A stretch of DNA of 63,571 nt, the filler included, from Hausera hauseri (Eukaryota), in assembly GCA_046269625.1 (NCBI GenBank). It is 9 parts of 9 records of this genome, joined end to end, with 100 filler letters (N's around TTAATTAATTAA, not from the genome) between each part and the next. Parts side by side here need not be neighbours in the genome. Positions count along the whole stretch, not along the records: positions 55,724 to 63,571 come from JBJURY010900980.1; 8 more parts are not named here. One strand, written 5' to 3'. Position 1 is the stretch's first letter. The number at the start of each line of letters is the position of its first letter. Below, one piece after another: positions 14,301 to 63,571 of this stretch. Made by a program: the position numbers and the translations under genes. The notes under the pieces are model-generated. The model was not told the origin of the DNA. It saw only the letters and a program-made list of their open reading frames with translations, and ran no database searches.

Positions 14301-14546
14301 TATGTCACTCGACTTTGTTATAATAAAACCGAGAGTGACAATTTTTATTAATCGCCAACCACTGCCCTTTTTGGTGTAGTTAGCAATTTTTTTGTCCAGC
14401 TTTTCGCTTATGTCGGCAATGAAATCTTTGGAATATGGAACTGCTCGATGTGACAGGTACCATTGTTTCCTGTCACCTTGCAGATTCTCAAATTCTGCAA
14501 GTGCATAATATTGCACTTTGCAGTTGTGGTGTTTGAATTTCTCCAC
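11315..14546 (-). pseudogene. Polinton/Maverick protein-primed DNA polymerase B, copy 1
   Basis: GSGW, NVKNIDDEYCF (OTU-like), YADSE, CxxC..DHD.VTG.Y.GAAC (EndoVII/HNH), YLKLDV, YIDINNLYGWA, YKLKNNSLY.K, GDTDSF, KGIK. Many frameshifts. Confidence 0.93.
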
Positions 14547-14559
14547 TTCGGTTTGTCAC

Positions 14560-15499: not shown

Positions 15500-16530
15500 G
15501 ATAGCGCGTGGCGAGGTGAGCAAAAGTTAACGAAGGTGCGTCTTACAGAAATATAATAGAGAGGCGCTAAAAGAGGAAGAAACAAAACAGGAAATGCTCC
15601 ACGTGTAACGCGAAAAATGTTGCTAGCACTGAGAAAATGTGTACAAGGAGTAAGTCGATACTGGCGATTTCAATCGACACTGCTGCAAGTCGTTCAGACC
15701 ATGGGAACATGGGGAAAATCGATGGGAAAATTTCAAACGGGTAAAATTTCCACATGACAAAGTCTGCCGGTGATGGAAATTGGTACAATACATTGCTCAT
15801 AAGCTGGGAAAAATTTGATACTATAGCCGCCTCACGATCAGACCAATGGATCGGGGTGAAAAATACAATCAAACGAAGGAAGGAACGAACGAATTAAAAA
15901 AGGCCAATAGTTAAAGTCAAAATCATTATAGTAGGTAGAAGTGTCTTCTCCCAACCACTTGCTAAAAAGTGCTCAGATCGTGCTGGAAACCAGTTTTCCC
16001 CACTTATCTCTCAATTCTGAGCATTTCATGTTTTATGGTCGGAGACCCTCCAACCGGAAGCGCATGTCGCATGTTGCACATGTCAACGGCGGAAATTGGC
16101 AAAGCTGGATGAGGCGAGAAAATTTTCCTGGCGCGGCGAGAGTCGATAATAATACTGGGCGGCGCTAGAAGCAAAAGAAGCAAAACAAGAAATGTTTTAT
16201 GAGAAACAAGACACGAGTTACGAATTGCGCAGTGTTTGGTTCAAATGTCAAATCAATGTTGGGGAATCAAATGCGCACAATTTCAACGTTGTCTGACCAT
16301 GGGAACATGGGGAAAAATTGATGTGGAAATTTCAAATTCTAGAAATTTCCCATTGTTTAAATCTGCTGGTTGTGAAAATGGGTTGAGCACGTAGCCCATC
16401 AGTATTTGAGCTTACACTATTAAAGCCAATTTACGATAAGACCAATGGATCTCGGTGAAAAATGCAACAACAAAAAACAAACACATCGTTAAAAAGTAAA
16501 AATCGTCATCATTAAGATAATCGTCCTAAA
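15500..16530. repeat. Diverged tandem unit of about 600 bp, about 1.7 copies
   Basis: GACCATGGGAACATGGGGAAAA near 15697 and 16295; AGACCAATGGATC..GGTGAAAAAT near 15840 and 16439. Confidence 0.85.
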
Positions 16531-16532
16531 GG

Positions 16533-19500: not shown

Positions 19501-22500
19501 GTATATCCTTTCGTTCATTGGTTTCTTCGTTCGTACGTTCGTTCCTTCGTTCCTTCATTCGCTTATTCGTTAGTTCGTTCAGTTGTTTGTTCGTTCGTTC
19601 GTTTTTCTTTTGTCCTTTAATTCGTTCGTTTGTTCTTTCATTCGTTCGTTTGTACATTCGTTTGTTCTTTCGTTCGTTCGCTCGGTCGATAGTTCTTTCG
19701 ATCGTTCGTACGTTCGTTCTATTGTTTTTTCGTTCGCTGTTTCTATTGTTCTTTCGTTCGTTCGTTTGTTCGTTCGTTCGTTAGTTCGTTCTTTTGTTTG
19801 TTCATTCGTTACTTCGTTCTTTCGTTCGTTAATTCGTTTATTCTTTCGTTCTTTCGTTCCTTCGTTCGTTCTTTTGCTTGTTCGTTCGTGCGTTCGATTT
19901 TTCTTTTGTTCGTTTGATAGTGCGTTCTTTCGTTCGTCCCTGAGTTCATTAGTCCGTTCCTTCGTTCTGTCGTTCGTTCTTTCGTTCGTTCATTCGTTCT
20001 TTCTATCGTTCGTTCGTTGGTTCGTTCTATTTTTCGCTCATTCATTTGTTCTTCCGTTCGGTCTTTCGTTCTTTCATTTATTCGTTCTTTCGTTCCTTCT
20101 ATCGTTCGTTCGTTCGTTGGTTCATTCTTTCTTTTAATTGCTTGTACATTCGTTATTTCTTTCGTTCGTTCGTCCTTTCGTTTGTTTGTTCTTTGTTCCT
20201 TCGTTCGTTGTTTTTTCTTTCTTTCGTTCCTTCGTTCCTTCGCTCGTTCGTTCGTTCATTCGTTCTTTCGTTCGTTATTTCGTTTTTTTCTTCTTTCTTT
20301 TGTTTTTTCGTTCGTTCATTCTTTCGTACATTTGCATGTACGTTCGTTATTTCGTTCGTCAGTTCGTCCTTTCCTTTGTTTATTCTTTCTTTCTTTCATT
20401 CGTTCCTTCGCTCAATCGTTCCTTCCTTCGTTTTTTCCTTCGCCCTTTCGTTCGTTCGTTCATTCTTTCGTTCGTTCGTTCGATCGTTCTTTCGTTGTGT
20501 CCTTCGTTCGTTTGTTCGGTCGCTCTTTCTTTTTTTCTTTCGTTCGTTCTTTCGATCGCTCGTTTGTGTCTTCGTTCGTTCGTTGTTTCGTTCGTTCGTT
20601 TTTTCGTTCCCTCATTCATTCATTCTTTCGTTCGATCTTTCGTTCGTTTGCTTGTTCTTTCGTTCGTTTACTCGTTCTTCCCTTCATCCTCTCGTTCGTT
20701 CGTTCTTTCCTTCGTTATTTCGTTCCTTCGATCGTTCATTCTTTTGTTCAATCGTTCTTTCCTTCGTTCTTTCGTTCGTTTGTTCATTCCTTTGTTTGTT
20801 TCTTCGTTCGTTCGTTATTTTTCTCGTTCGTTTATACTTTCGTTCTTTTGTTCGATTGTTCGTTCATTCTTTCGTTCGTTCGTTCGATCGTTCTTTCGTT
20901 GTATCCTTCGTTCGTTTGTTCGGTCGCTCTTTCTTTCTTTCGTTCGATTCTTCGTTCCTTCGATTGCTCGTTTGTGTCTTCGTTCGTTCGATCGTTTATT
21001 CTTTTGTTCATTCGTTCTTTCATTCGTTCATTCATTCTTTCGTTTGTTTGTTTGTTCGTTTGTTCGTTCGTAGGTTCATTCTTTTTTTCATTTCTTCGTT
21101 GGCTCGGTCGTTCGTTCATTCGTTCGTTCGTTCTTTCTTTCGTTCCTTTGTTCGGTCGCTCTTTCTTTTCCTTCGTTCGTTCGTTCTTTCGATCGCTCGT
21201 TTGTGTCTTCGTTCGTTCGCTGGTTCGTTCGTTCGTTTTTTCGTTCCCTCATTCATTCATTCTCTCGTTCGATCTTTCGTTTGTTTGTTTGTTTTTTCGT
21301 TCGTTCGTTCGTTCTTTCTTTTTTTCATTCGTTCCTTCGCTCGTTCGTTCGTTCATTTGTTCCTTCCTTTGTTTTTTCGTTACTTCTTTCGTTCGATCCT
21401 TTGTTCGTTCCTTCGTTCGTTATTTCATTCTTTTTTTCTTTCCTTTTTTCTTTCTTTCGTTCATTCTTTCGTTCATTTGCTTGTACTTTCGTTATTTCGT
21501 TCGTCAGTTCGTTTTTTCCTTTGTTTTTTCTTTCGTTCGTTCGTTCGTTCTTTCTTTCTTTCATTCGTTCCTTCGCTCGTTCGTTCGTTCATTCGTTCCT
21601 TCCTTCGTTTTTTCGTTCATTCTTTTGTACGTACGTTCCTTAGTTCGTTGGTTCTTTCGTTTGTTCGTTTTTTCGTTCCTTTGTTCGGTCGCTCTTTGGT
21701 TCGTTATTTCCTTCGTTATTTTGTTCTTTCTTTCTTTCGTTCCTTTGTTCTTTTGTTCGTTCGTTCGGTCGGTCCTTCTTTTGTTCTTTCAATGGTCCTT
21801 TCGTTCGTTCTTTCGTTCGTTTGTTTTTTCGTTTGTTCGTTCGTTCGTTCATTCGTTCGTTATTTTCTTTCGTTCTCTCTTTCGCTTTTTCATTCTTTTG
21901 TTCTATTTTCATTTTCTTCGTTTGTTCCTTCGTACTTTCTTTCGTTCGTTCCTTTTTTCTTTCAATCGTTCGTTATTTTCTTTCCTTCGTTCTTTCGTTT
22001 GTTCATTTTTTCTTTCGATTTTTCTTTTGCTTATTTGTTCGTTCGTACTTTCTTTCGTTCGGTCTTTCGTTCTTTCTTTCTTTCGTTGTTTCGTTATTTC
22101 TTTCTTTCGTTCCTTCGTTCGTTCTTTCCTTCTTTCGTTCGTTCGTTTGTGAGTTCGTTCCTTCTTTTGTTCTTTCGTTCGTCTGTTCGTTAGTTATTTC
22201 GTTCGTTCGTTCTTTTGTTCGGTAGTGAATTCGTTCTCTCGTTCGTTATTTCATTCCTTCTTTCGTTCGTTCGATCTTTCTTTCGTTCGTTCGTTCGTTC
22301 GTTCGTTAGTTCTTTCTTTCGATCGTTCATTCTTTCGTTCTTTCGTTTGTTTTTTCTTTCGCCTGTTTGTCCATGCGTTCGTTTTTTTGTTCATTACTAC
22401 AATCGTTCTTTCCTTCTTTCATTCGTTCGTTCGTCCTTTCCTTCGTTCTATCGTTCCTTCTTTCGTTCTTTCGTTCGTCAGTTCGTTCGTTATTGCGGTC

Positions 22501-25500
22501 GTTCGTTCGATCGTTCTTTTGTTCGTTCGTGAATTCGTTCTTTCGGTCGTTTGTTCCTTCGTTCATTCGTTCTTTCTTTCGTTCTTTCGTTCATTCATTT
22601 CGTTCGTACGTTATTTCTTTCTTTCCTTCGTTCGTTCGTTCTCTCGTTCTTTCCTTCTTTCTTTTTTGCTTTCGTTCGTTCGTTCGTTCGTTCGATCCTT
22701 CGTTATTTCTTTCGTTCCTTCGTTTGTTCGTTCGTTCTTTCGTTCGTTCATTCGGTCTTTCTTTCGTTCGTTCGTTCTTCCTTTCGTTCTTTCGTTCGAT
22801 CGTTCGTTCAAACGTTCGTGCGTTCTTTCATTCTTTCGTTCTTTCGTTCTTTCATTCTTTCATTCTTTCCTTCGTTCGTTCGTTCCTTTCTTCTTTCGTT
22901 CATTCGTACTTTCGTGCCTTGGTTGATTGGTTCATTCGGGCCTTTGTTCACTGGTTTATTCGTTCATTCGTTCGCTCATTCGTTCTTTCGTTCCTTATAT
23001 CTTTCGTACTTTCGTTCGTTTTTTCTTTCTTTGGATTTTTGTTTTGTTCGTTTGTTCATTCGTACTTTCTTTCGTTCCTTCATTCATTTCTTTGTTCGTT
23101 CTTTCGATCTTTCTTTCATTCGTTTGTTTATTCGTTCGATCCTTCGTTCGTTCTTTCCTTCGTTCGTTCGTTTGTACGCGCTTTCGTTCATTCGTTCTTC
23201 CGTTCGTTCGGTGGTTCATTCGTTCTTTCCTTCGTTCGTTCTTTTGTTCTGTCTTTCTATCTTTGGTTCTTTCGTTCCTCCTTTTTTTCTTTTGTCCGTT
23301 CGTTTGTTTGTTTCTCCTTTCGTCCTTTCGTGCGTCAGTTCGATCGTTCTTCCGTGGTTCGTTCGTTCTTTCTTTCTTTCATTTCTTCGTTCCTTTATTC
23401 GTTGGTTCCTTCGTTCTTTCGTACCTTGCTTCATTCGTTCATTAGTTCATTTGTTCATTCTTTCGTTCTTTCGTTCATTCTTTCGTTCTTTCGTTTATTC
23501 CTTCTTTCTTTGGATTTTTCTTTTGTTCGTTTGTTCATTCGTACTTTCTTTCATTCCTTCTTTCAGTCGTTCGTTCATTCGTTCGTTCTTTCGTTTGTTT
23601 TTTCTTTCGCTTGTTCGTCCATACGTTCGTTCTTTCGTTCATTAGTACGTTCGAACTTTCATTCGTTCTTTCATTCGTTTGTTCGTTCCTTCGTTCATTC
23701 TTTCGTTCGTTCATTCTTTCATTCGTTCGTTCGTTGATTCGTTCCTTCTTTCTTTCATCCGTTCGTTCTTTCGTTCTATCGATCATTCGCTCCTTCTTTC
23801 ATTTGTTCTTTCTTTCGTTCTCTCCTTCGTTCATTCGTTCGTTCTTTCTTTCTTTTGTTTGTTCGTTTATTCTTTCATTGGTTCGTTCATTCTACCATTG
23901 GTTCTTTCGTTCATTCACTCCTTCGTCCGTTCTTTCGTTCCTTCGTTTGTTCTATAGTTCAATTGTTCTTTCGTTCGTTCCTTCGTTCTTTCATTCGTCC
24001 TTTCGTTAGTTCTTTCCTTCATCCATTATTTCGTTCCTTCCTCGTTCGTTCTTTCTTTCGTTCTTTCATCTGTTTGTTCGTTCGTTCGTTTGTTCGTTCT
24101 TCCTTTCGTACGTTCGTTCTATAGTTCATTCCTTCCTTTTTTCGTCCGTTCGTTCTTTCGTGCCTTTGTTCATTCTTTCGTTCGTTCTTTCTTTCGTTCG
24201 TTCTTTCCTTCTTTCGTTCTGTCGTTTGCTTGTTCGTTATTTTCGTTCGGTCCGTCCTTCTTTATTTCGTTCGCTCGTTCGTAATTTCTTTCGTTCGTTC
24301 CTTCTTTCTTTCGTTTGTCCGTTCGTTCTTTCGTCTGCTCGTTTATTCATTCGTTCTATGGATCGTTCTTTCTTTCGTTTGTCCGTTCGTTCATTCGTTT
24401 GTTTGTTTTATCTTTCCTTCATTTGTTCGTTCGTTCGTTCGTTCATTCGATTTTTCATTCGTTCGTCCTTTCGATCTTTCGTTCGTTGTTTTATTCTTTC
24501 TTTCTTCCGTTCCTTCGTTCATTCGCTTTTCCGTTCTTTCTTTCGTTCGTTCTTTCGTTCTTTTGTTCTTTCCTTCGTTCTTTCTTTCGTTCGCTTTTTC
24601 TTTCGATCGTTCATTCGTTCATTCGTTCTTCCTTTCCTTCGTTCGTTCGTTCGATCTTTCTTTCTTTCTTTTGTTTGTTCGTCCGTTCTTTCCTTCGATA
24701 CTTTGTTCTTTCGTTCGTTCTTTCTTTCGTTCGTTCGCTGGTTCGCTCTTTCTTTCGTTCCTTCATTCGTCCGTTCATTTGTTCCGTCGTTCGTTCGTTC
24801 TTTCGGTCGTTCTTTCGGTCTTTCGTTCGTTCCTTCATTCTTTCGTTCGTCCGTTCGTTCTATCATTCGTTTGTTCGTTCGTTCTATCGATCGTTCTTTC
24901 TTTCTTTCATTCATCCGTTTTTTTCCTTCGTTCTTTCGTTCTTTCGATCGTTCATTCCTTTGTTCGTTCTTTCTTTCGTTCGTTCGTTCGTTCTTTCGGT
25001 CATCCGTTCTTCGTTCTTTCGTTTGATCTTTTTTTTATTTTTTCGTTTGTTCATTCTTTCGTTCTTTTTTTGTTCGGTCCTTCATTATTTCGATCGTTCG
25101 TTCGTTCGTTCGTTCTTTCGTTCGTTCGTATGTTCATACGTTCTTCCGTTCGTTCGTTCGTTCTTTCTTTCTTTCTTCCTTATTTTCGTGTGTTCGTTCG
25201 CTCTATCGTGCGTTCATTTATTCGTTCGATCGTTCATTCGTTCGTTCTTTCATTTGTTCGTTCTTCCTTTCGATATTTCGTTCGTTCTTTTATTCTTTCG
25301 CTCTTCCTTTCCTTCTTTCTTTCGTTCGTTCGTTCGTTCTTTCGGTCATCCGTTCTTCGTTCTTTCGTTTCTTCGTTCTTGCGTCCATCCGTTGGATCGT
25401 CCGTTCATTCGTTGGTGCGTATTTTCATTCGTTTTTTTCCGTTCTTTTGTTCGATCTTTCGTTTATTTTTTTGTTCTTTCGTTTGTTCAATGGTTCGATC

Positions 25501-44716: not shown

Positions 44717-47700
44717 TTATTTCAAACGCCAATGTCAGTACACCAAACTATTATTTCACCCCACCCACTTACAATTATCATCATTCATGATAAAGCGACT
44801 TTTTTATTCGTTACAGTATACAGCTGGTGCTCAATCGATCGTATGATCGTTTGTGACACAACAGCCTTTGATTAGCCTCCTTCTTCATAAATACGTCGAT
44901 AATCACCGTGATGGATTTCCGTCTGTCTCAGCTGGACTCTTTTTGACTGAATTTTCGGTCCACAGTCCGTCAGAAGACTGTAGCACTTTGGACGTAGGAA
45001 TATACATTCCAGATACTGAACCCTGCCTTCACTTTCATCCTTGAATCAGCCTATTTTGTTGGTGATCGCGCTGCTGTACAACGGATGACTCGGTGGATAG
45101 TTGGACGTGTCCAATAGTCCATCTGCCATCATTTGCCGGAGCAGTTGGTCGCGATTGACGTTTCTCAGCTCTAGGAAAAAGCTGTCTATGTCACCGGCAA
45201 CGATACTGATCTCACAGCCATCGAACATTTGCCGGTAACGTGCCAAGTCGCGATACTGGAATTCGTACATTCGCAACTTGTACAGGTCAAATACCACTTG
45301 TCCGATGTAACTTGGCCGGTCCAGAACGACTTCTTCCCGGTTTAACAGCACAGCAACCAATTCATCGACAATGCACATTGACCGCCGAAATTGCACCTTA
45401 CTCGTGTACGTGACCAACCGCTTTTCGCTACTGCATAGGCGTACATTGAGCCGCTTTTTTAGATTCTCCACTGTTTTCCGTATAGGGAATTGTTTTTCAG
45501 CTTGTAGTAGTCCTTTTCGAACTTTGTGCAAGTTGCGGCTTGCTTCTCCGAATTTCCATCTATGTACGCCTTGAATATGTGAGCCTGTGTGAATCGGATT
45601 GCACAATGTATCTGCACGACGCATACACCCAACTGCATGTAGAGCTGTAGCAGACGCCAATGGACCACGTAATTCAGCTCCGGTTCATGCATCGTGAACA
45701 GTTTCTTCACTTTTGAGCCTGGTGGACATTGGTTAAATGGTGCGACCGGTAAATCGTCCAAAACGTCGTGCAGTGCATGTGATACCACGAGGTCGACCTC
45801 CATCAGGTATCCGACTGAGCCTGCCATGTCTGCTTGTGGTAGGTTGACCATTATGTCGTCCAGGACTTGTATGTCAACTACCCATTCGAATGAGCTGTAC
45901 GGCAAGGGTTGCGAAAGCGTTCAGCGGTACAGCTTATTACTATCAATATACAGCAGTGATGTGGTATCGGCGGTAGCACTGACCTGATGCTTGTTGGCAA
46001 ATGTCATGCCGCAGTGAATACCAACATCAAACAGCCAGGATATTTCCGGGTCTTGCAGCAGCTCAATGTCTCGATCCAGTGACATTAGAGCTGACGCCCA
46101 ACTCATTCCCGTTATGGAATAAAAGTTGAGTGCCTCCAGCCTATCTTCAGCCAACGCTTTTGCTCGAAACTCCTGGAACACATCGGCAAACAGGTATACA
46201 TCCAGTTTAAGATACTGTAGCTTGTACTCCAACAGGGTTCTACAGCCGAGCTCTGCCAAAAACTATTGTGCTTTGTGATAGTCTTCTGTAATACCGGGCC
46301 ATTGCGGTGGTAATTCGTCTGTCGTCTGGAGCCGCTCGTACGATATAGCAAAGTCATACGGGAATATGCCTTTGCTACGTGCAATGTGTGGTGAACTGAG
46401 TCACTGTTAGTGGCACATCTGGCAAGACATTCACCAGCTTTGCCAGAGATTCATTGAGAAATTGCAATGAATCGACGAAGCGTACCTGGAACCGGTTTAT
46501 ACAAGCAGACAGTGGCGGGTATTTCTCCATCGTAGTCGGAATTATGGATAGTTGCCAGTGCGGAAATCCGTTTATGGATCATTTCAGAATATGGTGACAG
46601 TCATAACCTCGGAAATTATGAAAGATCGCCGGTAGTAATGGCCGAATGCGCCTTTCCAAATTGTATGAATTACATGCAGCGCTAAAGTATTCACTTGTAA
46701 AATGATCGTGATCCGATACGAGCAGTTCCTGTGCATCAAACGTCAATATTTTGAGCCAGAGGTAGCATTCATCGGTGGCTGCAAACATCACTTGTCCGTA
46801 TTCGTCTATCCAGATCAGTGACTTAGTGGAATTATTGCGATACCACGGCGCAATTTCCGTTTCTACTTTTGTTTCCAACTGATGTATGAAATAACGCACA
46901 CAGTACCAACCGTAAAACGCATAATACTGCGGCTGACCAGTGGCTTTTATCGGAACCAGCATACCTACGGCGGTTGGTATGTTTTTGGCCGTAGATGTTG
47001 TGCCGCGATAGAATTGCCTCGATATCGGCATATGCTGCATATGACGGACTGTCCGTTTTTGACCAGTCAGTGAATCTTAGCTCCTTTTTGACAGTCATGA
47101 CATACATTGTTGTTCCTGATGCATTATGTCTTCACAGCGCCATATGCTCTTCCCATGTCGCTTCTGATCTGAATCCATGCAAACACAGCGGACACCATTT
47201 ACATCTTATTTGTTTCTGGATAAACAGGTCATGCGCCATATTCAGCAGTCTGTCCAGATTTGTCACTGCTACGTAATGAAATCGGTCATTCTGTTCCAAC
47301 AGCATTAAATTCACTAGGCGTCCATTCGGGTTTCGACTGCGATAGATTATGTCCACATGCGGATTTTTGTAAATGTCTCCATCTGCTGGTATTTCCAGTA
47401 TTGTGTTGTACCGGAAAACGTTGGTGTACAGCGTCGGATTACGCCGTTCAAATGTCGGGATGGATTTCAATTTCATTGGCATCCAGCTTTCGTCGCAGTC
47501 CAATTCGGAGAAATACTGCCGATACAGATTTGGACGACTCGCATTGTCTGGCCACTTCATCATATTTCAATACGACCAGAATATTGTAAAGAAAGCAGTA
47601 TTCATTGTCCGTACTTTGCACATTCACGACCGCACAAGACTGTCGTAAAGCTGCATGTGTCGGTATGAATGATCGGCGGGATAAATAAATGACATCACTC

Positions 47701-47978
47701 GACTTTCTTATAATAAAGCCAAGTGTGACAATTTTCATAATTCGCAATCCACTACCCTTTTCCGTGTAGTTGGCGATTTTCTCACCGAGCTTTTCGCCAA
47801 TGTCCGCAATAAAATCTTCTGAATAAGGTACAGCTCGATGTGACAGGTACCATTGTTTCCTGTCGCCCTGTACATTTTCAAATTCTGCAAGTGCATAATA
47901 TTGCGTAATATTGCACTTTGCAGTGTTTGAATTTCCGAACTTCAGCTTGCAATCGGTTTCGCACACTGGACGGGACAT
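44717..47978 (-). pseudogene. Polinton protein-primed DNA polymerase B, copy 2
   Basis: GSG, DNEYCF, HYVAV, YADIE, DHDHFT, FHNFRGYD, YLKLDV, YIDSN.LY, YKLKNNSLYGK, GDIDSF. Confidence 0.93.
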
Positions 47979-47999
47979 GACTCAATTACGTTCTTGTGT

Positions 48000-50436: not shown

Positions 50437-52800
50437 TCAATGTGCCGCTGAAAAGTTTGTGCGGCATTCCGCAAACCGAATGGCATAAACAGGTATTCAT
50501 AGAGGCCGAAAGGAATAGTGACGGCAGTTTTTCTATGTCTTCAAATGCCACCGGTATTTGATGGTATGCTTTAGCTAAATTAATGTTCGAATAGATGGTG
50601 GTTGAATTAAGAAGATGCAAGATATTCTTGATGAGTGATAAAGGGTATGCATCCATGATTGTCAAGTTGTTCAACTGCCGGTAGTCACCGCATTGTCTAA
50701 AAGTACCGTCCTTTTTTGTACAACGTGTAACGGTGATTACTAAGGAGATTTGGAATGTCGTACTATGCCAGAACGTTCTAGTTCGAGACATTCGGCTTCT
50801 ACGGCCTGTCTACGACGAGGTGACAGAGGCCGTACCTTTTGGAGCATTGTACGTTGATGCTGTGTAACTATATGGTGTAAAGTACTGTTTGCGGGAGTAA
50901 ACGTGCAGTCTTTTTTAAGTACGCGTGGACATAATGTGTTGACGAATTTCTGTAAAGTATTAGGGAACTTTGAAAGATTTGGTGAAAGTGGTGAAACGGC
51001 TTGAGTAGTAGCGGATGCAATTTGTGAGTTGTTAGGTGATGTGCAGTCAAGTAGTATTTTGTGTAAGATGGTCGAATTGAAAATGGTGTTGGATGAAGTA
51101 TTTTCGTCGAATAAATTAACGTTGGTGGCAGTACCATAATTATCGACATCAAACTTCAATTGTATATCAACATTATTATTTAAAAATTTACAAATGGAAT
51201 TATTGTTATAAAAAATCGAATTATTCATTAACTTATTTAAGATTGACCTCCGCATTCCGGTCGACTGCGCGGTAGTCAAAATAATATTGACAGGTCCAGA
51301 AATGTCGCCAGTGGTGCCGTTCCTCAAACATCGCTGAGTTCAGTCAACCAGTAAATTATAGTGTGAGAGAAAGTTGGATCCTAGAATTGCCGTCTGGACG
51401 TTAGCGATTGTGAACATCCAGAGGAAGGGTAAAGGAAAATTTGGTAAAGTGAAAGATAATTTAGCCATGCCAGAAATGTGCAGCGGTTGATCTGAAGCAG
51501 TGTATAAGGACTTAAGTCTGAATGGAGAATTTTGTATAGTGAAGGTTTGTAGTAATAAAAAATCGCTGCACATGTATCAATGAGAAAGTCAACAGACTGC
51601 GTTGTAGGAGCAGTGATTAAAGCCTTTAGAGCAAAAACAGCAAAAGAGACATGTCGGCGTTCAGAAAGTGAAGTAGTGCCTTTGCCAGAGTTTGCCGTGA
51701 CTTCTGGCGGCAAACAGTTTTTTTGAAAGGGTGAATTAGGACGACTATTAGGAAGAAAGGCAGTACGTCCGTCGTTCGTATTTGATTTAAAGGTGCAGCC
51801 TAGAATATATTTACGAGCTTTGTTTTTGAACCTTGCATGGTAGATGCAAACAAAGGTGTCCGAGGAAAAATTCTTGTTATAAAATTTGCACTGTGGGCAG
51901 CACTTCTAAGCATTAGTGTTGAATTTGCTGTGGTATAGCAGATGGACGAACACGCAGGCGAAGGTGAGCGGTTTCTAGACGTAGAAAGAACGCGGTCAGC
52001 GGCAAAACCCCCTCGCCGGGACAGAGACATTTCGTGTAATTTATTATTGATATTGTTGATTGTTGCATGCAATGCAATATTTTCAGCACGTAGCTGATTA
52101 AGCTGTTGTTCTATGGATGTATTATCATTAGCAGCAGCTGCTGCTGAAACAACTGGTGGAGAATTTACGTGTGGGACATCGTGTGTCCTATCGGCTAATT
52201 CGGCCAATTTCTCAAGCTGTGTGGAGTCTTCTACCACGTAAGTAGGGCCCACATTTGGATAAGTAGCGCATCAAGGAAATAGTGGCGCAGTAGATCTGGG
52301 TTGTGTTACTTAGTGACGCCGAGAGTATGTAGATGTGCTAAAATGTACGTAAGAATTCGGATGGCCGTTGGGTGCCTATAACGTTGTCGTGGAAGAAACG
52401 ATGTATGATCGTGTCCATGGAAGGTTCTGTGATCTTAAGAACTGCGTTAGAAAGTTAGGAATATGGGTCTGGAAGTTCAAAGATTTCTATGATGTTGCGA
52501 ATGCGGGTTTTGATGTTATTAGGGAGTAAGAAGAGGAGATTATGTGCTTTAGTTAAAGAGTCAGTGATGTTATTTGCCTGTAGCCATAGCTGATGAAATT
52601 GCAAACGAAGTTTTGCTGGAACCTTGGTTGTCAATAAAAAATTCGGTGCAGTTGGGGAAAGGATTGGAAGAGGTAATGGATGGAAGGTTGCTAGTAGGAG
52701 TAGAAATGGGTTTTTGGAGCAATATAACAGGTATTAATTTCGTGGTAGTTTTATCCGTGGTGTCTATGATTGGTGAGTTTATGCCACCACAAATACGGAG
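50437..52800 (-). mobile_element. Ty3/Gypsy element H (gag, protease, 5' part of RT), decayed
   Basis: gag IGTQRPSEFL and LEKLAELADR; protease FLIDTCA and ILGSNFL; RT KKDGTFRQCGDYRQLN, YPL, YHQIPVA. Confidence 0.9.
51684..51723 (-). promoter_or_regulatory. -1 ribosomal frameshift signal (AAAAAAC plus pseudoknot), element H
   Basis: AAAAAAC tg TTTGCCG CCAGA agtca CGGCAAA c TCTGG at the gag/pro boundary. Confidence 0.7.
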
Positions 52801-53149
52801 ATGTATGTGGAGGCAAGTGTGGCTTGTAAAAGATGGTAGGGTTCCGTTGAGAGTTATGATAGCGCCGTTATGGGTGAGGTAAAATCGGAAGAGCAAAGTA
52901 AAAAAGAAATGAAGGTACGAAAATTTGCAATATGGAAATGTGGTGTAGTGATTGTGTAAATGTGTATTATTGAGGAAAAGGAGAATAGAGAGGGGGAAGT
53001 AGTATGCCTGGGGCGTGGTGTGGGGCCGACGCGAGCGGCTTCGTCTGACCAACCGGCGTAGGGTTGACGGACGGGACCTCCGCCTCGGCGAGGCGGGCCC
53101 CAAATTGCACGGTGACCGAATCTCCCCTCAAAATTGCGGCCATGTCTTC

Positions 53150-53343
53150 AGCTCAATAATGTATTTGATGCACAGACAATTAATGTATCGATCCGCTATG
53201 TCCATTGATTTAGGCTCGTCCAAACGCTGACTGGCCAAATGGCAATTCACAGCATTGTAATAAATACGACCTTTCAGTGCATAGAAGTCAATCAGAGTCA
53301 GTGTGTGATACAGCTAGATTTTGAAATAAAGCCATAATGAGGT
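53150..53343 (-). pseudogene. NAA15/NAA16 (NatA auxiliary subunit) fragment
   Basis: HTLTLIDFYALKGRIYYNA...LDEPKSMDIADRYINCLCIKY resembles TPTLIEL...K.KIYKHAG...DEAQ.LDTADR.IN.KC.KY. Confidence 0.75.
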
Positions 53344-53401
53344 CTATGGAAAGGTAAAGTTATTAAAAAGATAAAATTATTATCGTCAACGATAAAATTA
53401 C

Positions 53402-54150
53402 CGAGTCGTTCAACTTTGCTTTCGACCGACACTAAATCGGATTTTATTGTCTGTGCCTGACTGATGAGGGTAACATATTCCTCCGCATATTTGGCGATAC
53501 TGGCTTCAAGTTGCTTAATGAGATTCTCGGTTCCTTCCGCTTTTTTCTTATCCGCTTGGGCAGCTTCAGTTAACTCGGTTAATTCACTTCTAAGCAGTTG
53601 AACTCGTTTTAAAATACCAGCATAATTGACTTGGGCAATCACCCATTTCACCATCGGTCCGCATGCATTACTAGCTTTGTTAATCTTTTCAAAATTGCAA
53701 TCCGCGTTGCTCAAATATTTTTCTTTCATTGTGTCACGTATGGGATCAGTAATGTCGTCAGTATTGAAATTCAATATATTCTGAACAAAATTATCTTTAA
53801 CTATGGACTTGAGAACCGATGTCTCTTCCGCAGTTTTTTCTCCCAATAAAAAGCATATCGCTTCTGCAGCCATCTTTACCAACTGTGGAGAATTTTTCAT
53901 AGCTCTAATTTCCTGAACGTCTTTCTTGCGAATATTCTATATAGCGTGCTTGGCATCATTAACGGATGGCTCAACTTGCTCTAGCTCCATATTAACAGCT
54001 TGTTTCTTTTCATTAATAAATTGCTCTTGTTTAACCATTTCTTTTTGTAATTCCTGATTAGTTGCCTTACGTTGTTCTGTCTCTTGCTGCTCTTGAACTA
54101 TCTGTTTCAGCTTTTGGTTGGCAGCATTGTTCATTCTTTACAATTCTTCC
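53402..54150 (-). pseudogene. DYNC1H1: Cytoplasmic dynein heavy chain fragment (stalk CC1-MTBD-CC2)
   Basis: AANQKLK, VEP.V.DAK.A, VKMA.EAIC.LLGE, KYLSN, KAS.ACGPMVKW..AQ.NYA, LISQAQ.IK. One stop; intronless. Confidence 0.92.
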
Positions 54151-54173
54151 CAAATCGTCCAAATCAAACCCAA

Positions 54174-54893
54174 AACAACGGATGGTATAAGGCACCTCCA
54201 TCTCAAATTGAAACTGGCAATACTTGAAGTATTCAATAGAACAATTCTACCCGGTGCCAATAAATTTTGGATTTCGTTTCTATTTTCCATAATTTCGCAA
54301 AAAGACTTTCTCAACTCACGGTAATAAGTACAGGTTTTATAAAACGACTTAACAATGTCTAAATTACACCCTTTATCCGTACAATTTAGTCCTTTTAAAG
54401 GTATGGACTTCAATTTAGGGGATATAGCATAGTATTCCTGATATTTTTCTTCGTAGTTCTTTATTCTTTCTGCCTCACTGAAACTGTGGCGTATTATATA
54501 CTTAATATTTAGTTCTTTTTCATAATTAACCGTCTCCAATTTGTGCATTTCTTCGTTAGAAATGAGCTGTGTAGCAGGTTTAAAACTCGCTGAACTCGCA
54601 ATCCATTCAGACAGTAAACAGTTACGGAAAAATCGATTTAACCAATGCTTTTCTATATCTTGAACGTTGATTTTCGGTTTCGTCTGATAAATTGTATTGA
54701 CATCGACAAGTGTTTTCGGCAAATCATCCGAAAACGATTTAATAATCACATCATCATGCAATAATCTAACGGGAACAAAATCCGGATCACGAAAATCTGA
54801 CGTTGATATCGAATGTATGTGGTTTATTTTCATCATGTTCGGAAAAATCATAAGAACTTTAACTTTATACTTATGATTTCCGGACGTTTGGCG
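54174..54893 (-). pseudogene. Inserted host fragment whose 3' half is SKI2/SKIV2L helicase-like
   Basis: LNIKYIIRHSFSE...C...C..DI...FY...LLAPGRIVLL resembles SKI2 VEDMMKRSFSE...L..GRVV. The 5' half is unassigned. Confidence 0.6.
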
Positions 54894-55339
54894 AATCAAA
54901 CCCAACATCGACCGTGGATTGCCAACGACAATATCGTGATCACTAACATTCTACAAATGAACGTGTTGATCCAACAGAAAATTTATGGCTTTGTCAACGT
55001 TAACTAAACAGTGAATACGCATTTTGCCCCTTGTCGGCTTTCGGAGTTTTTTGCAAGCTAATATTTCTAACAGTTTAATCAACTTCTTACCATCATGTAA
55101 ATCCAAATAGAGATCGTCAATAGTTTGTGATATTTTAATCAAATGGGAATTCATCCCTTTCGTAAATGTTTTTTCTGAACCATTTCGCGTTCCTCGGCTA
55201 GTGCTTTAATTCGAGACCTTTCGTACAATTTTGCAATGCTATCTCCTCCCTCAAATTCTTCTTCATCGCTAAAATAGACCCCATTGGCATTGCCATTTGC
55301 GTCCCATTTCATATTTTGCTGCATACTCTGAACTTCCAT
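54894..55339 (-). pseudogene. beta-spectrin N-terminus and CH1 domain fragment
   Basis: [26 protein letters not shown]...DLY.DL.DGK.LIKLLE.L...[19 protein letters not shown]...DIV.GN...LGLI. Frameshift and stop. Confidence 0.92.
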
Positions 55340-55723
55340 TGTGTTTGGAAAAATGTATCTCAAACGAAAATCAGAGATATTGATAAACTGATAAAATACA
55401 GACAATCAAATCACAGAAACAATGTCAGTAATGTAAATGTTATTAATGCGATATAACAAGCAAAAAACTGGTGTCGCTTTAATTTCATGTATTGATGTAT
55501 TCATATTCAGATTTAGCAGGTAATTTCGGCTTATTTGAAAGGTTCTATCTAGTCGACTCCGCTTAACTTCATGTAGTCGTAAAGTTGAGTGTGACGCTAA
55601 CCGAAATGTGAAATTATGCTGTANNNNNNNNNNNNNNNNNNNNNNNNNNNNNNNNNNNNNNNNNNNNTTAATTAATTAANNNNNNNNNNNNNNNNNNNNN
55701 NNNNNNNNNNNNNNNNNNNNNNN

Positions 55724-58700
55724 ACCAGAGATTTGAAAAGATTTTCTTCAAATTGCGGACCCTGGTCCGTTATAATGTGACATGGTGAACCCAAGCGGTT
55801 GATCCATATTTTGATAAAAGCATCTGCTACGGAATCAATGTTGGTTGATGGAAGAGGAAAGGCTTCCGGCCAGCGAGAAGCGCGATCACTCATAGACAAG
55901 ATATATTGGTAACCGATGTCGGATGTTGAAGGGCCGACAAGATGCAAATGAAAGGTGTCAAAACGAGATGTACAAGGGAAGTGGTAAAGTGGTGGTTTGA
56001 GCTGATTATGGACTTATACTGCTGACATGCTACACATCCCTTAACCCAGACCTGTACATCTGTACGTATAGTTGGCCATACATCGTGGCGTTGCAGTAGA
56101 CGAAATGTGGCTTTCGAACCCGGATGATGAAGAGAGTGAAAATGAGTGAAAGCTGTCTTTTGTAACGATGGAGCAAGAATGATTTTTTTATTGGTCGAGT
56201 TGGATGTCGAGTTGGCGATGTCATCGATGATCTCAACAAACTTCTCAGGATTTTAGAGGACAAAATTGGCTGAACTGTAATTGAACTGACCGACCTCGAC
56301 AGAAAGTCTTCTACTAAATTTTCGGTTCCTGAAATATATTTCATTGAAAAACTAAATGTCGACAGATATGATATATGTCGTTCTTGTCTGGATGATGGCT
56401 ATTTTAACATCATGATATGAAGTAGAGTCATGTAGTCGGTTTGGATGACGAATTGAGGTGATAGAAGCAAATGCTTGAAATGCTTTACCACTAGAACTAT
56501 GGCCAGGAGCTCACGATCGAATGTTGAGTATCGGCTTTCTGCTTGCGCGAGCTTTCGGGAATAGAATTCTAACGGCTCATCTATACCATTGTATATTTGG
56601 TGTAATATCACACCAGTGGCTGTGGTGGAGGCATCGGTGGTTAGTGTTAGTTCCGCGTTAGGTTTTGGAAAAGCCAGGATTTCAACGGTTTTCAGACCTT
56701 CACGAAGGCGATCAGATTGGTTTATTATATCAGAAGTTCAGTGGATTAATTGTCTTTTCTTCCCGGAGGAGAGGGGTGCGAAAGGTGTCATTAGTTCGGA
56801 GCAGTGTGGCACACATTTGTGTACAAAATGCAGTGTCCATAAAAAACTCCTTATGTCGGTAGTAGTAGGTGGTAATGTCACATTTTTCAACTGTTGCAAG
56901 CGGTCAGGCTGGGGGGAATGACCATCGGGAGTAATTATATGGCCTAAAAAGTTGATGCGTTTCTGAAAGAAATTAAATTTGGATAAATTAATTTTCAGGT
57001 TGCTTTGATGCAATCTGTGAAAAATAATTTGGAGATGCTCATGATATTGTATTATGGAGGTTGAGGCGACTAGTATGTCGTATATATGGATGAGCAAAAT
57101 CAAGACCTGAATGTACTGTGCCGATATGGCGTTGAAAGGTTTGAGATGCGCTACGTAGGCCGAAAGGCATGAAGATGTATTCATAAAGGCCAAATGGTGT
57201 GATGACAGCAGTTTTTGGAATGTCGTCAGGTGCAACAGGAATTTGATAGTAGGCCTTGTGCAGATCAATGATAGAGTAGGTATTGGTGATACTGAGGCTA
57301 TAAAAAATATCCTTAATGTGTGGTAGTGGATAGGCATCTGTAATAGTTAGGTTGATTAATTGTCGATAGTCACCACATGGCCTGTAAGTACCATCTTTCT
57401 TTACCACTACGTAAAGAGGAGAGGCCCATGGAGAATTCGATTTCCGAACGATGCCAGACTTTTCCAGTTCACTAAATTCCTGTTCCACAGCTTTACGTCT
57501 GCGTGGCGACAAAGATCTGACCTTTTGTTTGATAGGCCTCTGATGCTCTATTAATATATCGTGATAAGTTTTGGATGGAGACTTGAAGTTGACATCCCTT
57601 TTATCTATCCGAAAGCAAGACGTTGTGACGTATTATTTAAGATCGGAGTTTAGAGATAAGAACGAATGAGGCATGTCATCGGACGAGACAGTTGCAGCAA
57701 TTTACGAAGAACAATCGGCATTGCCACTGTCAAAATTCAGTTTGTATTTTTGTTTTAAAATTGGTTTGTGATTGTTATACTCGTCATCATTTGATGAGGT
57801 ATTCGGTATATTTATAAAAGCGTGAATTTAGGTGTTCCCTAGATTGTCTGTGAGATATACGTGCGGAATTCGGATCGAGTTCCTACTCAGAAGACAGCCG
57901 TATTTGCAATCAACCAATAGAGCATATGCAGCAAGAAAATCTGAGCCTATTGTGGGAGATTTAATACTGGCCACGTAAAACTTCCAGACAAACTTATCCG
58001 GCAAGTTGGCGAATGTGAAAGTCAGTTCCGTGGTTCCTGCAACGTGCATCGGTTGCCCACTGGCAGTGAAGAACGGAGGACAGGAAATTATAGTGGATGT
58101 AAGAGTGAAGGACAAGGGAAGGAGTGAAAAGGCAGCTCCTGAGTCTATTAAGAATTTGATATGTGAGGTATCTCTGCACAACAGTGCAGCTTTCAACAGA
58201 AAGACTGCGGAGGCGGTGTTGAAACTGCTAGAAGATTGAGCGATATTGCCTGCGCCAGAATGTGCCGTGGCATCTGGCGGCGTTGTTAGTTTTTTGAGGT
58301 TTGTTGGAGAAAAGAAGAGGAATGAAAAGAGCGAGGAGAAGAAGATGGAGGAAAACTAGAATTCTTTTTATAATATTTGCATCCTGGGACACACGAACTA
58401 GCCTTGGACTGATACTTTCTGTGATAAATGCAGAATGGATTGTCTACTGCATAACGTTTGTCGTAAAATCGACATCACAAAAGACATTTGCTTGCGTCTC
58501 CGTGGAATTTGTTATGATGAAAGCAAATTATTCTTCCATCTCGAGATTTGGATCAAAAGGAATGCCTGCAAAGACTACGATAGCGCGAGACACGGTTTCC
58601 CCTTCTTCGAGGCACAGATAAATCACTGAATTGGGCTGTAATCGCAGGAATTGCCTGTTGGTGTGTCGAACTGTTTCTGCATCATTTGCAGTTGTGCAAA

Positions 58701-59295
58701 TAAAATGTTATCCGTGTGATGGTATGTGAGCGGTTGCTGCAGCTACTGGTTGTAAGCTATTTGATTGTAAGATGTCAAAACATCTATCTGCCAGTAAGGC
58801 AAGTTTCTCGAGTGCCGTTGAATCGTTTACGACAGTAAGCAACGCTCTGATATAGGTGGGCAAAAAAGAAAGAAAATACCGACGAAGAAGTTCGGCATTG
58901 TTTGTAAGAGTGACACCTAAGGAACTCAGTTGAGAAATAGCGGTTTTAAGGAAATCAAACGGCTTTTGATTTCCGATAGCATGTTCATTAAAGTATTTTT
59001 TTATGTTATGCTGTCAATGGAAGGGTCGGTAATATGTAGGACTGATTCGTACAGCATGTCATGGATTTGAAGAGGTGAGTATGTCGGCAAGATTATTGAT
59101 TTGCTATTTGATATTTGCTGAAAGAAAAAACTGTGATGCAATTGGCTTTATGCCATTGCAAATGGAATTGTAGCCAGGTGAGAGTCGAATTAGCTTTGTC
59201 TAGGAAGAACTCTGTACAAGGAAGATTTGGAGATGTAGTTGGTGTGGGGTCAGCAGGACGACGATCAGATGGGGTCTTGGTGGCGTTTTCAACAT
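55724..59295 (-). mobile_element. Ty3/Gypsy element I (gag, protease, RT, RNase H, 5' part of integrase), decayed
   Basis: gag PCTEFF and LEKLALLAD; FLIDSGA; WASPLYVVVKKDG; MPFGLR; TDAS; YSTFDRELLA; HLVGP, SRWPEAFP, TDQGPQFE. Homologous to element H. Confidence 0.95.
58254..58295 (-). promoter_or_regulatory. -1 ribosomal frameshift signal, element I
   Basis: AAAAAAC TAA caac GCCG CCAGA tgcca CGGC acat TCTGG. Confidence 0.7.
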
Positions 59296-59949
59296 AAGAA
59301 GGATAGGGGTCCGATCAACCCCGTAGGCGAAAATAAAGCATGAGATGGGTAACTGGACGTTCATGGCATGTGAAAGACAAGTAATTCGACAGGATGTAGT
59401 GATACCTCTATACGTGAAATAAAAGTTAGAAGTGTTGAGTGAGGAGGATAGAGTTTTATAGGGGCTGAGCTGTGGAATTGAATGGAACTCTTATGGTTTT
59501 AATGTGTTAATTATTGCTGAAGACAGGAAAGAAAATTACAATGAGGTGATCCTAAGGGAACGTTAAAATGCACGGGGGAGTGGGCGGCTTCCTTTAGGGT
59601 TGAGGTTAAGCGTATAGCCGGAAAGGTAGTGGTAAATATTAATTGTGATAAAATAATATCTAAAGTCTTCGAGCTTAGAAACCTTTTAAAATTAAAATAG
59701 ATGTTAGCTGTTAAGGATTTATGCGTGTCCAAAGAATGGCCGCACTGGTGGGCGGAAATCAGTGAAAACAACCTCACCCATCTGTGTCTAAATGTGGTTT
59801 TACTGACCGCCATGACAGCATCCTCATTATGACCAGGCACTGACGATGTTATTTTAATGTGAAATGATTGCGCTGAACAATTTCCGCCGGCCCCGAATAC
59901 TGTTGAATTGAAATTGGCACCGTATGACCTGATCTGCCTTCGTGGTAAA

Positions 59950-60251
59950 AGGATATTAGCATCTGTAATTTGGGAACCCGTTTCTTGAGTTCGAAAACTC
60001 TTCGGATCGCTATTATTACTTTTGTCTATCGCAGCCTGGGACCTGATGTGAAACGTAAAACTGTGTTCGGGTGGTGCAGTCTTAAATTTGTTTGTGTACC
60101 GATTAGTCCCGTTCACAATGAGCCAGATTATTGGCGCCGTACTGTTAGTCGTATCACGAGATTTCCAGCTGATGAAAGCGTTGTTTTCCGTTGTTCGAAT
60201 ATCACTAATGATTGATGCTCGTGGCAAACCATTTGTTGATTTGTTATGCAT
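59950..60251 (-). pseudogene. Fibronectin type III-like host fragment
   Basis: P.ASIISDIRTTENNAFISWK...PEHSFTFHIRS. Weak motif match. Confidence 0.35.
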
Positions 60252-60289
60252 TGCTATGATACTTCCAAGTATAGAGAGATAGAGGTAGA

Positions 60290-61200
60290 TAATTTTTAAG
60301 TTTTATTAAGCTGATAAGCCTTAGTGAGCATGTTTCATAACTCTTTGGAACACAAATTATCAAAAAATGCTTATTTTCAAAATGGATTATTTTGAGAAAG
60401 ACTTTAAGAGCACTGGTTTTAAGTAAATGTCTAAGCAAAATAACTGATTTGCTATACGCTTCAGGGAAATATGATGGTAAAAGGAGACTGTACAAAACAC
60501 TGACAGTGTAAGTTGTTTTCATTAGGGGAGCAAAATAGAGATATTTCTGAAGTGTTTCGGAGTTTTCTTTGTAAATAGCTTCCATAAGATTCGTGTTAGC
60601 ATGATGGTTGGTGGTAAAAAATTCAGTAAATAATTTATAGACCACCGGAGTTTTTCACTGCTGACCTGTAAGGACAAATCTCCGATATTGATAAGTAATT
60701 CCATACATTTTTTGTTATTTGATATAGTAACACCTGAAAGAGTTACTTCACTCTCTTCAGTATGAATTACATCTGACGGATCAATCCTCGTAGGAGGGAT
60801 AGCCCCATTATATATTTCAAGCTGCTGTATTGTTCGATAGTTATCTTTCTCTTCGATTATTAAATCTGGACCTTTAGAGATCTCAAAATAATTTCCGTCT
60901 CTGTATAGATCTTTCAAATGCGCTTCGACCTTTTTACGAAGGTTAATAAAAAATTCGTTAGAATGAACTTCAGTTTCAGATTGATGAGAATTACGACGAC
61001 CAGATGAATTATAAAGTCACTGTGACAATACGGCATTTTCTGTAGGTCTTTCTCGACAAGCCGGGATTTTTCCGCTGATAAAGGTACCTAATATCACATT
61101 CTCTGATAAATTTACAAAGAATTTGGATAAGATTCACACGTTTGTTCACAGATTCCTCCATTTCTGATGAAACTTCAAAATAATTTTCTAAAACATCATC
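60290..61200 (-). pseudogene. USP9X/fat facets-like deubiquitinase fragment
   Basis: [17 protein letters not shown]; HSNE; EVTLSGVTIS...IGDL....KLR....LLNFLPP; VLYSLLLP. These follow the order of USP9X motifs EYINECD, HTND, LPGVIMS, LMKLMPP, VYALLMP. Confidence 0.72.
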
Positions 61201-63253
61201 GAGTCGATTCCGTTTTTCGACTTCGGCAACAAGTTTATCAGTACTGAACTGGCCTCTGACAACCATTATGAGTTGCTTAATAACGTCATCGGAACCATTG
61301 ACATCGAGCAAGCCACCAACGACAACTGGTAGTCGCTGGGGGTTGACCTTTTGAATGTATATTTTAATGTACTTCTGCAGTTGATGTCGGTATAGATAGA
61401 GTACCAAATCGTAAACAAAATTTAATCTAACACAGACAATTATGAGGAATGGTTGATCGGTCAATTTAGCCGCCTTCGAAAAATTTGTAACTCTCTGCAA
61501 ATCCTCTCAAACTCCTTAATCTGTCCGGTCTTACAGGCCGATTGAATGTGCTTAAAATGCACTTCTGGATCTTGGCTAATGTTAGCGATTGAGCTGAGGA
61601 AATAAAACAGGCCCTCGTAACATTTTCATGATTTGAAAATTTTAATGATGTTAGTCGTACCAAGTTGTTCGTGATATTTACTGGCAATCTGAACGCAGAC
61701 CTGCAGATTCTGTCTGATGTTTGCGTGAAGCATGGCTTTGATATACTCAAGAGAATCGTCAACTGACAAACAGTGGAAATAGTTAAGAAGGAACTCCGGA
61801 TTCAACAGATGAGTATGGACGACATAATCGGTATAATGTTCAAGTGCCCGTTGCAATAAACCAGTTTTTTTACATATTTGTGCAATGTGAGCTTTATCGT
61901 AATGCATGAATATTTTGTTGCCCGTAAGGGCATCGGCAACTTGCGGCGCATGCACAAGATTCATTTCGAGCAGTCGCATTTGTAAATGAGCTTCCGATGG
62001 TCTGTTATTTTTTTGTGCATCCAACAGGAATGAAGTGCACTGCTGAGCCAGACCCTGTTCCATGAAAATATCGCCAATCTGATTGAGATCGTTGTTGAGT
62101 GGTTCTTCGTCCTGAACGAGCATTTGTGCAGATTGTAGACCCTGGTCAGGGTTTGTTCTTATCAGATTTCTCAGCAGGTATACGTAATCAGGTGTGAATC
62201 CAACATTTTTCGAGTACAGAATAATCTTCTGGAACTGTCCCATTTCTGCAAAACACTGAACAACTTTCTGAGGCACATTTGCTCTTAAATAGACGGACAA
62301 TATCAATGTGGGGTTATTCTGTTTAACAATGTCACCAAATTCTTCGGAACATTCACGTTTATCTGTCTTTAACCACTTTTCAAGTAACTGTTTCTTGCCT
62401 TGTAAAAGAACTGATCACCAGAGTTTCAGACATTCGTATTTGTTAAGTTGTTCTTGGTCTAGTAGAATGCCGAAATACTGAAGTAAATTGGAGGCTTTGA
62501 GTAGGCACTTGCTGAAATCGGTGAATCGTTTTAGCAGTTCTCAATGTTCCTTTGGGTGCACTTGCTGCTACTTTGCAGCCTCGGAATACTGACCGATACT
62601 GACTAGGTTGCTGAATTTGTGAACGAAAAGGTCTTCTGCACAGTTTGTTTCTGATAGTCACTCGTAAAGCCAAGTCGGGCATGTTTAGAGTATTTGTAAT
62701 GTAAGAAACGATCGTGTCTTCCTCAATCGAAACAAATAAAACCTGACCCTTTCGGTTCACTCCGATAAATCCAGCGGTGGCTTCGTACGGTGATGTGACA
62801 AATATTGTTTCACTGCTGATGCGATATACATAAATTCATGTTCCGATCTCGATATTGTTCATGTAAATGTAACCATATTTGGTGATTAGAAATACCATGC
62901 TGTATTTGTTGGAAGTCTGCATAGCTACTGGAAAATCAGCTGCTGCTTCCGGTGGAAACATAACATCAACGCTGTACAACTGCATAGCATCAACAACTCT
63001 ACTCTGCTGTGCCGAAATACCGATTAAAGTTAACAATTTCGTACTGGGATCACAACGACAATTAATGATTTGACAACCGTTTAACGACGAATGCCGATAG
63101 AATATTTTCATAGGACTTGAATCATCTTCCATTAACCAAAGAAACACTGCATTTTCCGTAACTATAGTAATTGTATTCACCGAAATCCATTTATAATAAT
63201 AACGTCTACATATAATAACGTCTTCCGTTAAATTGTGAGATTTCATTTTGCTC
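61201..63253 (-). pseudogene. CLTC: Clathrin heavy chain fragment (propeller to proximal repeats), intronless, with internal deletions
   Basis: [78 protein letters not shown]. Confidence 0.96.
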
Positions 63254-63571
63254 TGACACCAATGTAGAGTCCTGTGTATCATCGACATTAAGTAGAATAG
63301 TAAAATCCAAATGACAAGAATTAGCTCCAACATTTTATTCAAGATTCAAAAAATTCTATAATTAATCATTAAATCATTATCTATTTGCAAAATATACATG
63401 AGACTGTTGATCCTCTGTTAAATCATGAAAGTACACCAAATAAAAGAAAAAGTACACCAATAAAAGAAAAAACCGTCAATTTTCATACTTTCATTAGAAT
63501 TTACTGCATAAAAGAACCTTTCCGATATTTGCACTAAACGATTCTTGATAAAAAGTATCCATATGCCTGAC
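63252..63571 (-). mobile_element. Candidate 5' LTR end and primer-binding site (tRNA-Leu type)
   Basis: The minus strand reads AATAAA (about 63334-63339) ... CTCTACA T TGGTGTCAGA. CA is at 63264-63263 and the PBS at 63261-63252. Confidence 0.55.

Follow-up and report, generated by a model that had tools for sequence, protein, structure and literature searches.

Behind the primer-binding site (PBS) of a decayed Ty3/gypsy element of Hausera hauseri, we identified a fragment of a clathrin heavy-chain gene that begins within the PBS itself, and the same layout was found in this genome with about 20 other host domain families besides clathrin. We are highly confident that such pieces were captured via RNA by this group of elements. 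The copy studied here would represent the 5' end of a dead element, whose clathrin piece was, on balance, probably acquired when RT jumped to a host mRNA packaged alongside the element RNA, with closure of the product at second-strand transfer. A more general view, that the PBS may be a routine entry point for host mRNAs and that stacks of fragments, ordered with the youngest at the PBS, exist in hundreds of elements, is offered tentatively.

The element copy and its clathrin cargo

The window, i.e., the whole stretch of 63,571 nt that was analysed, consists of contigs strung together via N linkers. The element copy lies on contig JBJURY010900980.1 (C900980; 7,848 bp, window positions 55724-63571) and continues off this contig at both ends, and sequence past 63571 or before 55724 is not attributable to it. 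Its features are as follows:

63263-63571, minus strand: 3' half of a multicopy Ty3/gypsy LTR, ending in ..CTACA and cut by the contig end
63252-63261, minus strand: tRNA-Leu PBS, first 10 of 18 nt (TGGTGTCAGA), complement of the tRNA-Leu 3' end
61201-63252, minus strand: processed, decayed clathrin heavy-chain fragment, about residues 97-860 (Pfam and blastx), with stops, frameshifts and an internal deletion
60242-61200, minus strand: second coding-like piece, 84% to L046 and 76% to L030, shared by few copies
59296-60241, minus strand: pre-gag region, common to many family members
55724-59295, minus strand: broken gag-pol with gag-like, protease-like, RT, RNase H and integrase regions (Pfam), the integrase cut by the contig end; gag and protease were called by position and motif, without a Pfam match

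Reading along the minus strand, an AATAAA motif (63339-63334) is followed by the LTR terminus ..CTCTACA at 63263, one spacer base and the PBS, which starts at 63261; the clathrin codons (SKMKSH) begin at 63252, with one A common to PBS and clathrin. A genome-wide search with 63200-63571 gave 26 matches. Among 11 other loci that were inspected, the match stopped within a few nt of the LTR CA in four, followed by unrelated flank, extended through an 18-nt PBS, complete or nearly so, in two, broke off before the joint in four and showed the same clathrin joint in one (L002). The complete LTR of L002 (738-1396) is 659 bp long (TGTAG..CTACA), and a solo LTR copy (L047) has a perfect 5-bp target-site duplication, with four of five bases in L182. 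Two tRNA-Leu(CAG) genes in the assembly (L111 and L119) end in PBS-complementary sequence. The earlier note had read this place as an LTR end followed by a tRNA-Leu PBS, the competing readings being a single-copy sequence or a clathrin intron. Both parts of that reading are now well founded: 63263-63571 is multicopy, with TG..CA ends and a target duplication in the solo copy, it ends in CA and not in AG, and the LTR-end/PBS motif, matched by the two tRNA genes, recurs genome-wide. The truncation of the PBS to 10 of 18 nt and the recurrence with many other host genes were absent from that note.

LTR bodies differ among family members, often only the first ~60 nt being common. The LTR body was also checked for a host origin and showed no homology to host genes: no credible Pfam match was obtained for 19 ORFs, and one 74-aa ORF had no match among 1.8 billion proteins, which speaks neither for nor against such an origin. 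A G-rich motif inside the LTR was considered as the PPT and rejected, since the LTR begins 37 nt earlier and the PPT precedes the LTR. The PPT precedes the LTR in five of the eight PBS loci with a resolved LTR start (L002, L049, L051, L137 and L164); therefore, tandem or permuted (circle-derived) copies are common, L002 among them.

By blastx, the clathrin fragment falls into three blocks in two frames, with five stops. One host exon (L016) is intact and bordered by AG and GT; the window copy continues across both borders, at 62204 and 61794, and has therefore lost two introns. In another clathrin copy, L044, the sequence runs on over the 5' border of host exon L081, which represents one further lost intron. 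Compared with L016, the window copy shows 30 differences over 411 nt, spread over all codon positions (18 non-synonymous and eight synonymous codons). We regard these differences as neutral decay and the cargo as a passenger, a dead piece with no evident function. The clathrin coding sequence ends abruptly at 61201, without a poly(A) tail, and is followed by a piece that family member L046 also has.

The identical LTR-PBS-clathrin junction is present on contigs L002 and L022, the latter behind a different LTR, and a contig of a separately assembled run (X1, which may be the same sample) spans the joint with no differences. Identity between L002 and the window copy is 93.8% for the LTR and 93.6% for the cargo; L002 may stem from secondary retroposition of the chimera, but may equally be a tandem copy or a divergent haplotype. 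In L044, of which L045 is a sister, clathrin runs from the start codon behind the PBS; L017 and L101 are further clathrin fragments. Changes at invariant residues are shared at four sites by the window copy and L044, at one by the window copy and L045, and at 17 by L044 and L045, whereas the parent exon itself departs at four of 100 invariant sites. Because the window copy thus shares with L044 and L045 no more than the parent departures give, separate captures or an early split are indicated. The possibility that the window copy is a deletion product of the L044 capture was considered and found unsupported by these shared changes. Genome searches did not recover the parent exon around codon 97, and the 1-nt overlap at the clathrin joint refers to retrocopy L045, this comparison being made with retrocopies only.

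Host clathrin clusters with flatworm clathrins (FastTree, 54 sequences, support 0.999; long-branch attraction is possible), and the host animal is a probable flatworm. The assembly also contains short contigs with small clathrin exons (L041-L043, L093, L095-L099 and L102-L107) at ~73% DNA identity to the main gene, some of these exons in two versions; these contigs probably come from other animals whose DNA entered the assembly.

Further along the element, the piece at 60242-61200, for which neither a Pfam domain nor a homologue was found, is probably an older cargo. In relatives sharing the pre-gag region, differing host pieces join at about 60241, 60173, 60024 or 59794. The RT is nearest to Ty3 RT (E 3.5e-30), with no matches in a search against phages, and the pol order PR-RT-RNase H-integrase together with the gypsy-type RT places the element in Ty3/gypsy. 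In L201 the order is PBS-cargo-pre-gag-gag-pol-PPT-LTR, with a closing LTR 82% identical to the window LTR family, and L202 is alike. The earlier note had placed the cargo between PBS and gag, which is what we see: gag-pol follows in the window copy, and L201 and L202 have the same layout. Its further idea that the PBS could belong to another LTR family than gag is not supported, as these two loci link the LTR family to the gag-pol family, with the caveats that the window copy runs off its contig at both ends and that LTR bodies vary within the family. Because of LTR-element biology and the loss of introns, it would follow that the clathrin cargo was inside the packaged RNA.

Host gene fragments at PBS sites across the genome

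The LTR-end/PBS 14-mer ACATTGGTGTCAGA occurs 272 times in the whole assembly versus seven times for the reversed control, and the LTR end followed by the full 18-nt PBS occurs 97 times versus none. Of these 272 sites, we inspected 92, taken from the start of the contig order, and the DNA behind the PBS at these sites forms 49 families. Host-type Pfam domains were detected in sense orientation at 24 of the 92 loci (264 ORFs; two matches weak), including RING/PDZ, ECM29, guanylate cyclase, UBA1, ABCC TMD0, TTI1, Nup205, Hakai, SH3, JmjC, GGT plus laminin G, kinases, dynein, alpha2-delta-type VWA/Cache, CSE1, ankyrin, C2H2 and a weak BLTP1. At a further two loci, the matches were to the element's own RT and to a Polinton-type polymerase. 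None of 140 antisense ORFs behind the PBS was host-type, the one with a Pfam match being a Polinton-type capsid. Similarly, the longest ORF was sense in 37 of 41 post-PBS families (≥450 nt; p=1e-7). Fragments of Polinton-type capsid and DNA polymerase lie behind gypsy PBS sites in L170 and L171.

Eight of 18 contigs of the window gag-pol family (a count that leaves out L219 and L220, which have <320 nt upstream) have sense host domains upstream of the shared region, namely DPY19, FN3 twice, RME-8, UBA1, PSME4, dynein, and DPP3 with beta-COP, and no host domain was found in 51 antisense ORFs of the same upstream regions. For clathrin, introns are demonstrably lost; for the other cargoes, it is mostly orientation and continuity that point to an mRNA origin. 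Searches for the parents of six and of two other cargoes recovered mostly sister copies and no parent exon spanning the PBS joint.

The length of the exact tRNA match at the 92 sites was 10-13 nt in 54, 14-16 nt in nine, 18-19 nt in 28 and 31 nt in one; exactly 18 nt were found at 26 sites, and 11 nt was the commonest short length (20 sites). The search pattern required 10 nt of PBS, and a relaxed pattern gave 392 occurrences versus 69 for the control; these counts suggest that few joints would lie at 8-9 nt. Ten of 12 inspected tRNA-pattern matches were junctions at least 23 nt into tRNA-Leu, with family membership established for part of them, suggesting possible read-through of the usual plus-strand stop. 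PBS-type junctions 23-31 nt, perhaps ~50 nt, into tRNA-Leu were noticed in L059, L112-L118, L120 and L121.

The order of pieces also varies among relatives. In L245 and L246, UBA1 begins ~45 nt after the PBS, but in L069 an additional 340-nt piece precedes it, and a single post-PBS start leads into different genes in L144 versus L181; newer pieces thus appear to stack adjoining the PBS. On the other hand, a stretch of ~107 nt that follows the PBS in L237 is missing from its sister L053 (3-nt overlap at the trim), and L178 is a trimmed member of a 24-copy family. Judging from these sister copies, some PBS joints, those of two cargoes, are secondary trims.

Two large post-PBS families, the L052 group (24 loci) and the L063 group (13 loci), have open frames that begin at the PBS and, in two members, are 294 and 370 aa long, without a Pfam match; they carry downstream host or Polinton pieces and stand behind many different LTRs. 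In addition, a separate contig of the window (50437-55623, minus strand) has three ORF pieces in a row upstream of a second gag-pol of gypsy type: a CH-domain N-terminus (ATG at 55339), which we take to be spectrin-beta-like, an ORF at 54138-54950 and a dynein stalk piece at 53298-53936. This is a cargo-before-gag layout, on a contig where no PBS was found.

Proposed entry step and its alternatives

During minus-strand synthesis, RT would switch, upstream of gag, from the element RNA to a host mRNA, and the resulting minus strand would lack a PBS complement at its end. The plus-strand strong-stop DNA, with a tail copied from the tRNA 3' end, would then be joined to this strand with little or no homology. 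We infer these steps, whereas the LTR end, PBS, intron loss, sense orientation, place ahead of gag-pol and recurrence are observed directly. The proposal is favoured by the lost introns, the number of sites with sense cargo, the concentration of joints at the PBS, the stacked pieces and the junctions that extend into tRNA-Leu. Every round would place a new piece, or a trimmed old one, directly behind the PBS, and because each round adds there, cargoes would stack with the youngest nearest the PBS; the same faulty transfer would also produce trims. The joints adjoin or lie within the tRNA-derived tail, but later trimming gives an identical structure, so this placement is not diagnostic. Several findings do not fit the proposal easily. 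Detectable host cargo is present in 12 of 31 short-PBS versus five of 18 full-PBS families (p=0.54), i.e., such cargo and a short PBS are not associated; secondary trims occur; and about half of the identifiable cargoes, clathrin included, start inside the coding sequence and not at the mRNA 5' end.

In a possible though less likely alternative, an ordinary double template switch by microhomology at some place in the dispensable leader, of the kind reported by Tan et al. (2016), would have been followed by deletion and overwriting down to the shortest PBS that still primes (~10 nt), and the joint at the PBS would reflect selection and not the capture step. The absence of association between cargo and PBS length, the trimmed sisters (L053 versus L237, and L178), a floor of PBS length near 10 nt and the multiplication of families with an 11-13-nt PBS (13 copies) all agree with such attrition, and L044, with clathrin from the start codon, could be an untrimmed form. 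However, descent of the window copy from the L044 lineage is not supported by the shared changes given above. Moreover, the clathrin of L044, ECM29, ABCC TMD0, TTI1 and a ULK4-like kinase begin at or near the N-terminus behind the PBS, as judged from Pfam positions, and random trimming of long genes would seldom yield N-terminal starts.

Splicing offers a quite improbable route, in which a cryptic donor in the PBS after nt 11 would be joined in cis or trans to acceptors of host genes, similar to read-through transduction by retroviruses. PBS nt 12-13 are indeed GT, 11 nt is the commonest short PBS, and for all three clathrin joints 11 nt from the PBS joined behind an AG is a possible reading. 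In contrast, the PBS breaks off at 10 nt in 13 of 49 families, sister copies of L053 and L127 do not have AG just before the joint position, and the clathrin AG lies inside coding sequence without a pyrimidine tract. Finally, a chance match, a clathrin intron or a misassembly can be practically dismissed: the assembly is very fragmented (909,086 contigs) and a 13-nt pattern with one mismatch arises in 14 of 100 window shuffles, but the multicopy LTR has sharp ends and a target duplication, and the joint is present on three contigs and on the separately assembled one.

Comparison with known systems

Host-gene capture by LTR elements is known; what stands out here is the host joint anchored at the PBS and the scale. 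PBS-joined deletions in retroviral vectors were reportedly described by Pulsinelli and Temin. In the literature searched, which included few subscription papers, PBS-anchored capture of host mRNA was not found.

The element shares with Ty3/gypsy elements (Metaviridae) using a tRNA-Leu PBS the LTR ends, PBS, PPT, PR-RT-RH-IN order and an RT nearest to Ty3, and differs in its leader, where 3.9 kb of cargo plus the shared pre-gag region stand against ~190 nt in L059. LTR-mediated retrocopies in animals have switch points anywhere, with a median microsimilarity of 6 bp and replacement of internal ORFs, and 15 cases were given for fly (Tan 2016; PMC5131818). The term PBS is absent from the main text of that paper, and its Supplemental Data Set 1 may hold PBS-adjacent joints. 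Both sets consist of partial, intron-free host mRNA in LTR elements and include multi-gene chimeras; the retrocopies of that paper were copied further with the element, and those here may have been. In contrast to that paper, the 5' joint here lies at PBS nt 10-18, with an overlap of 0-3 nt in the few testable cases, gag-pol is retained and not replaced, and the scale is far larger than the 15 fly cases.

Aberrant second-strand transfer with a PBS joint and tRNA read-through of 7-54 nt is described for HIV-1 proviruses (PMC12657518); there the joint is to downstream viral sequence (a deletion), whereas here it is to host mRNA sequence and inherited in the genome. Sense-oriented transduced host fragments are likewise reported for maize Bs1 (PMC7264820 and PMC5131818) and for plant LTR elements that have acquired additional ORFs (PMC7264820). 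There, copies are few or the additional ORFs are fixed, mostly lying between pol and the 3' LTR, in contrast to the variable cargo in the leader observed here. The available portion of PMC12801592 makes no mention of capture.

At least a quarter of the inspected PBS sites are followed by pieces of host coding sequence whose 5' joint is sharply placed, and pieces of this kind contaminate the gene annotation and copy counts of this genome. Joint counts in one genome make the entry step testable, be it minus-strand switch-back, second-strand transfer or later trimming. If true, entry at the PBS would be a natural conveyor for exon shuffling as well as a fossil record of packaged RNAs.

Other parts of the window contain a ~16-kb pyrimidine-rich simple-repeat array of TTCG/TTCT type (16500-33000; AT skew about -0.85) and, by eye, two regions resembling broken DNA polymerase B genes of Polintons or adintoviruses (11773-14555 and 45046-47981, minus strand). 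The contig with the latter region matches L066 behind a PBS.
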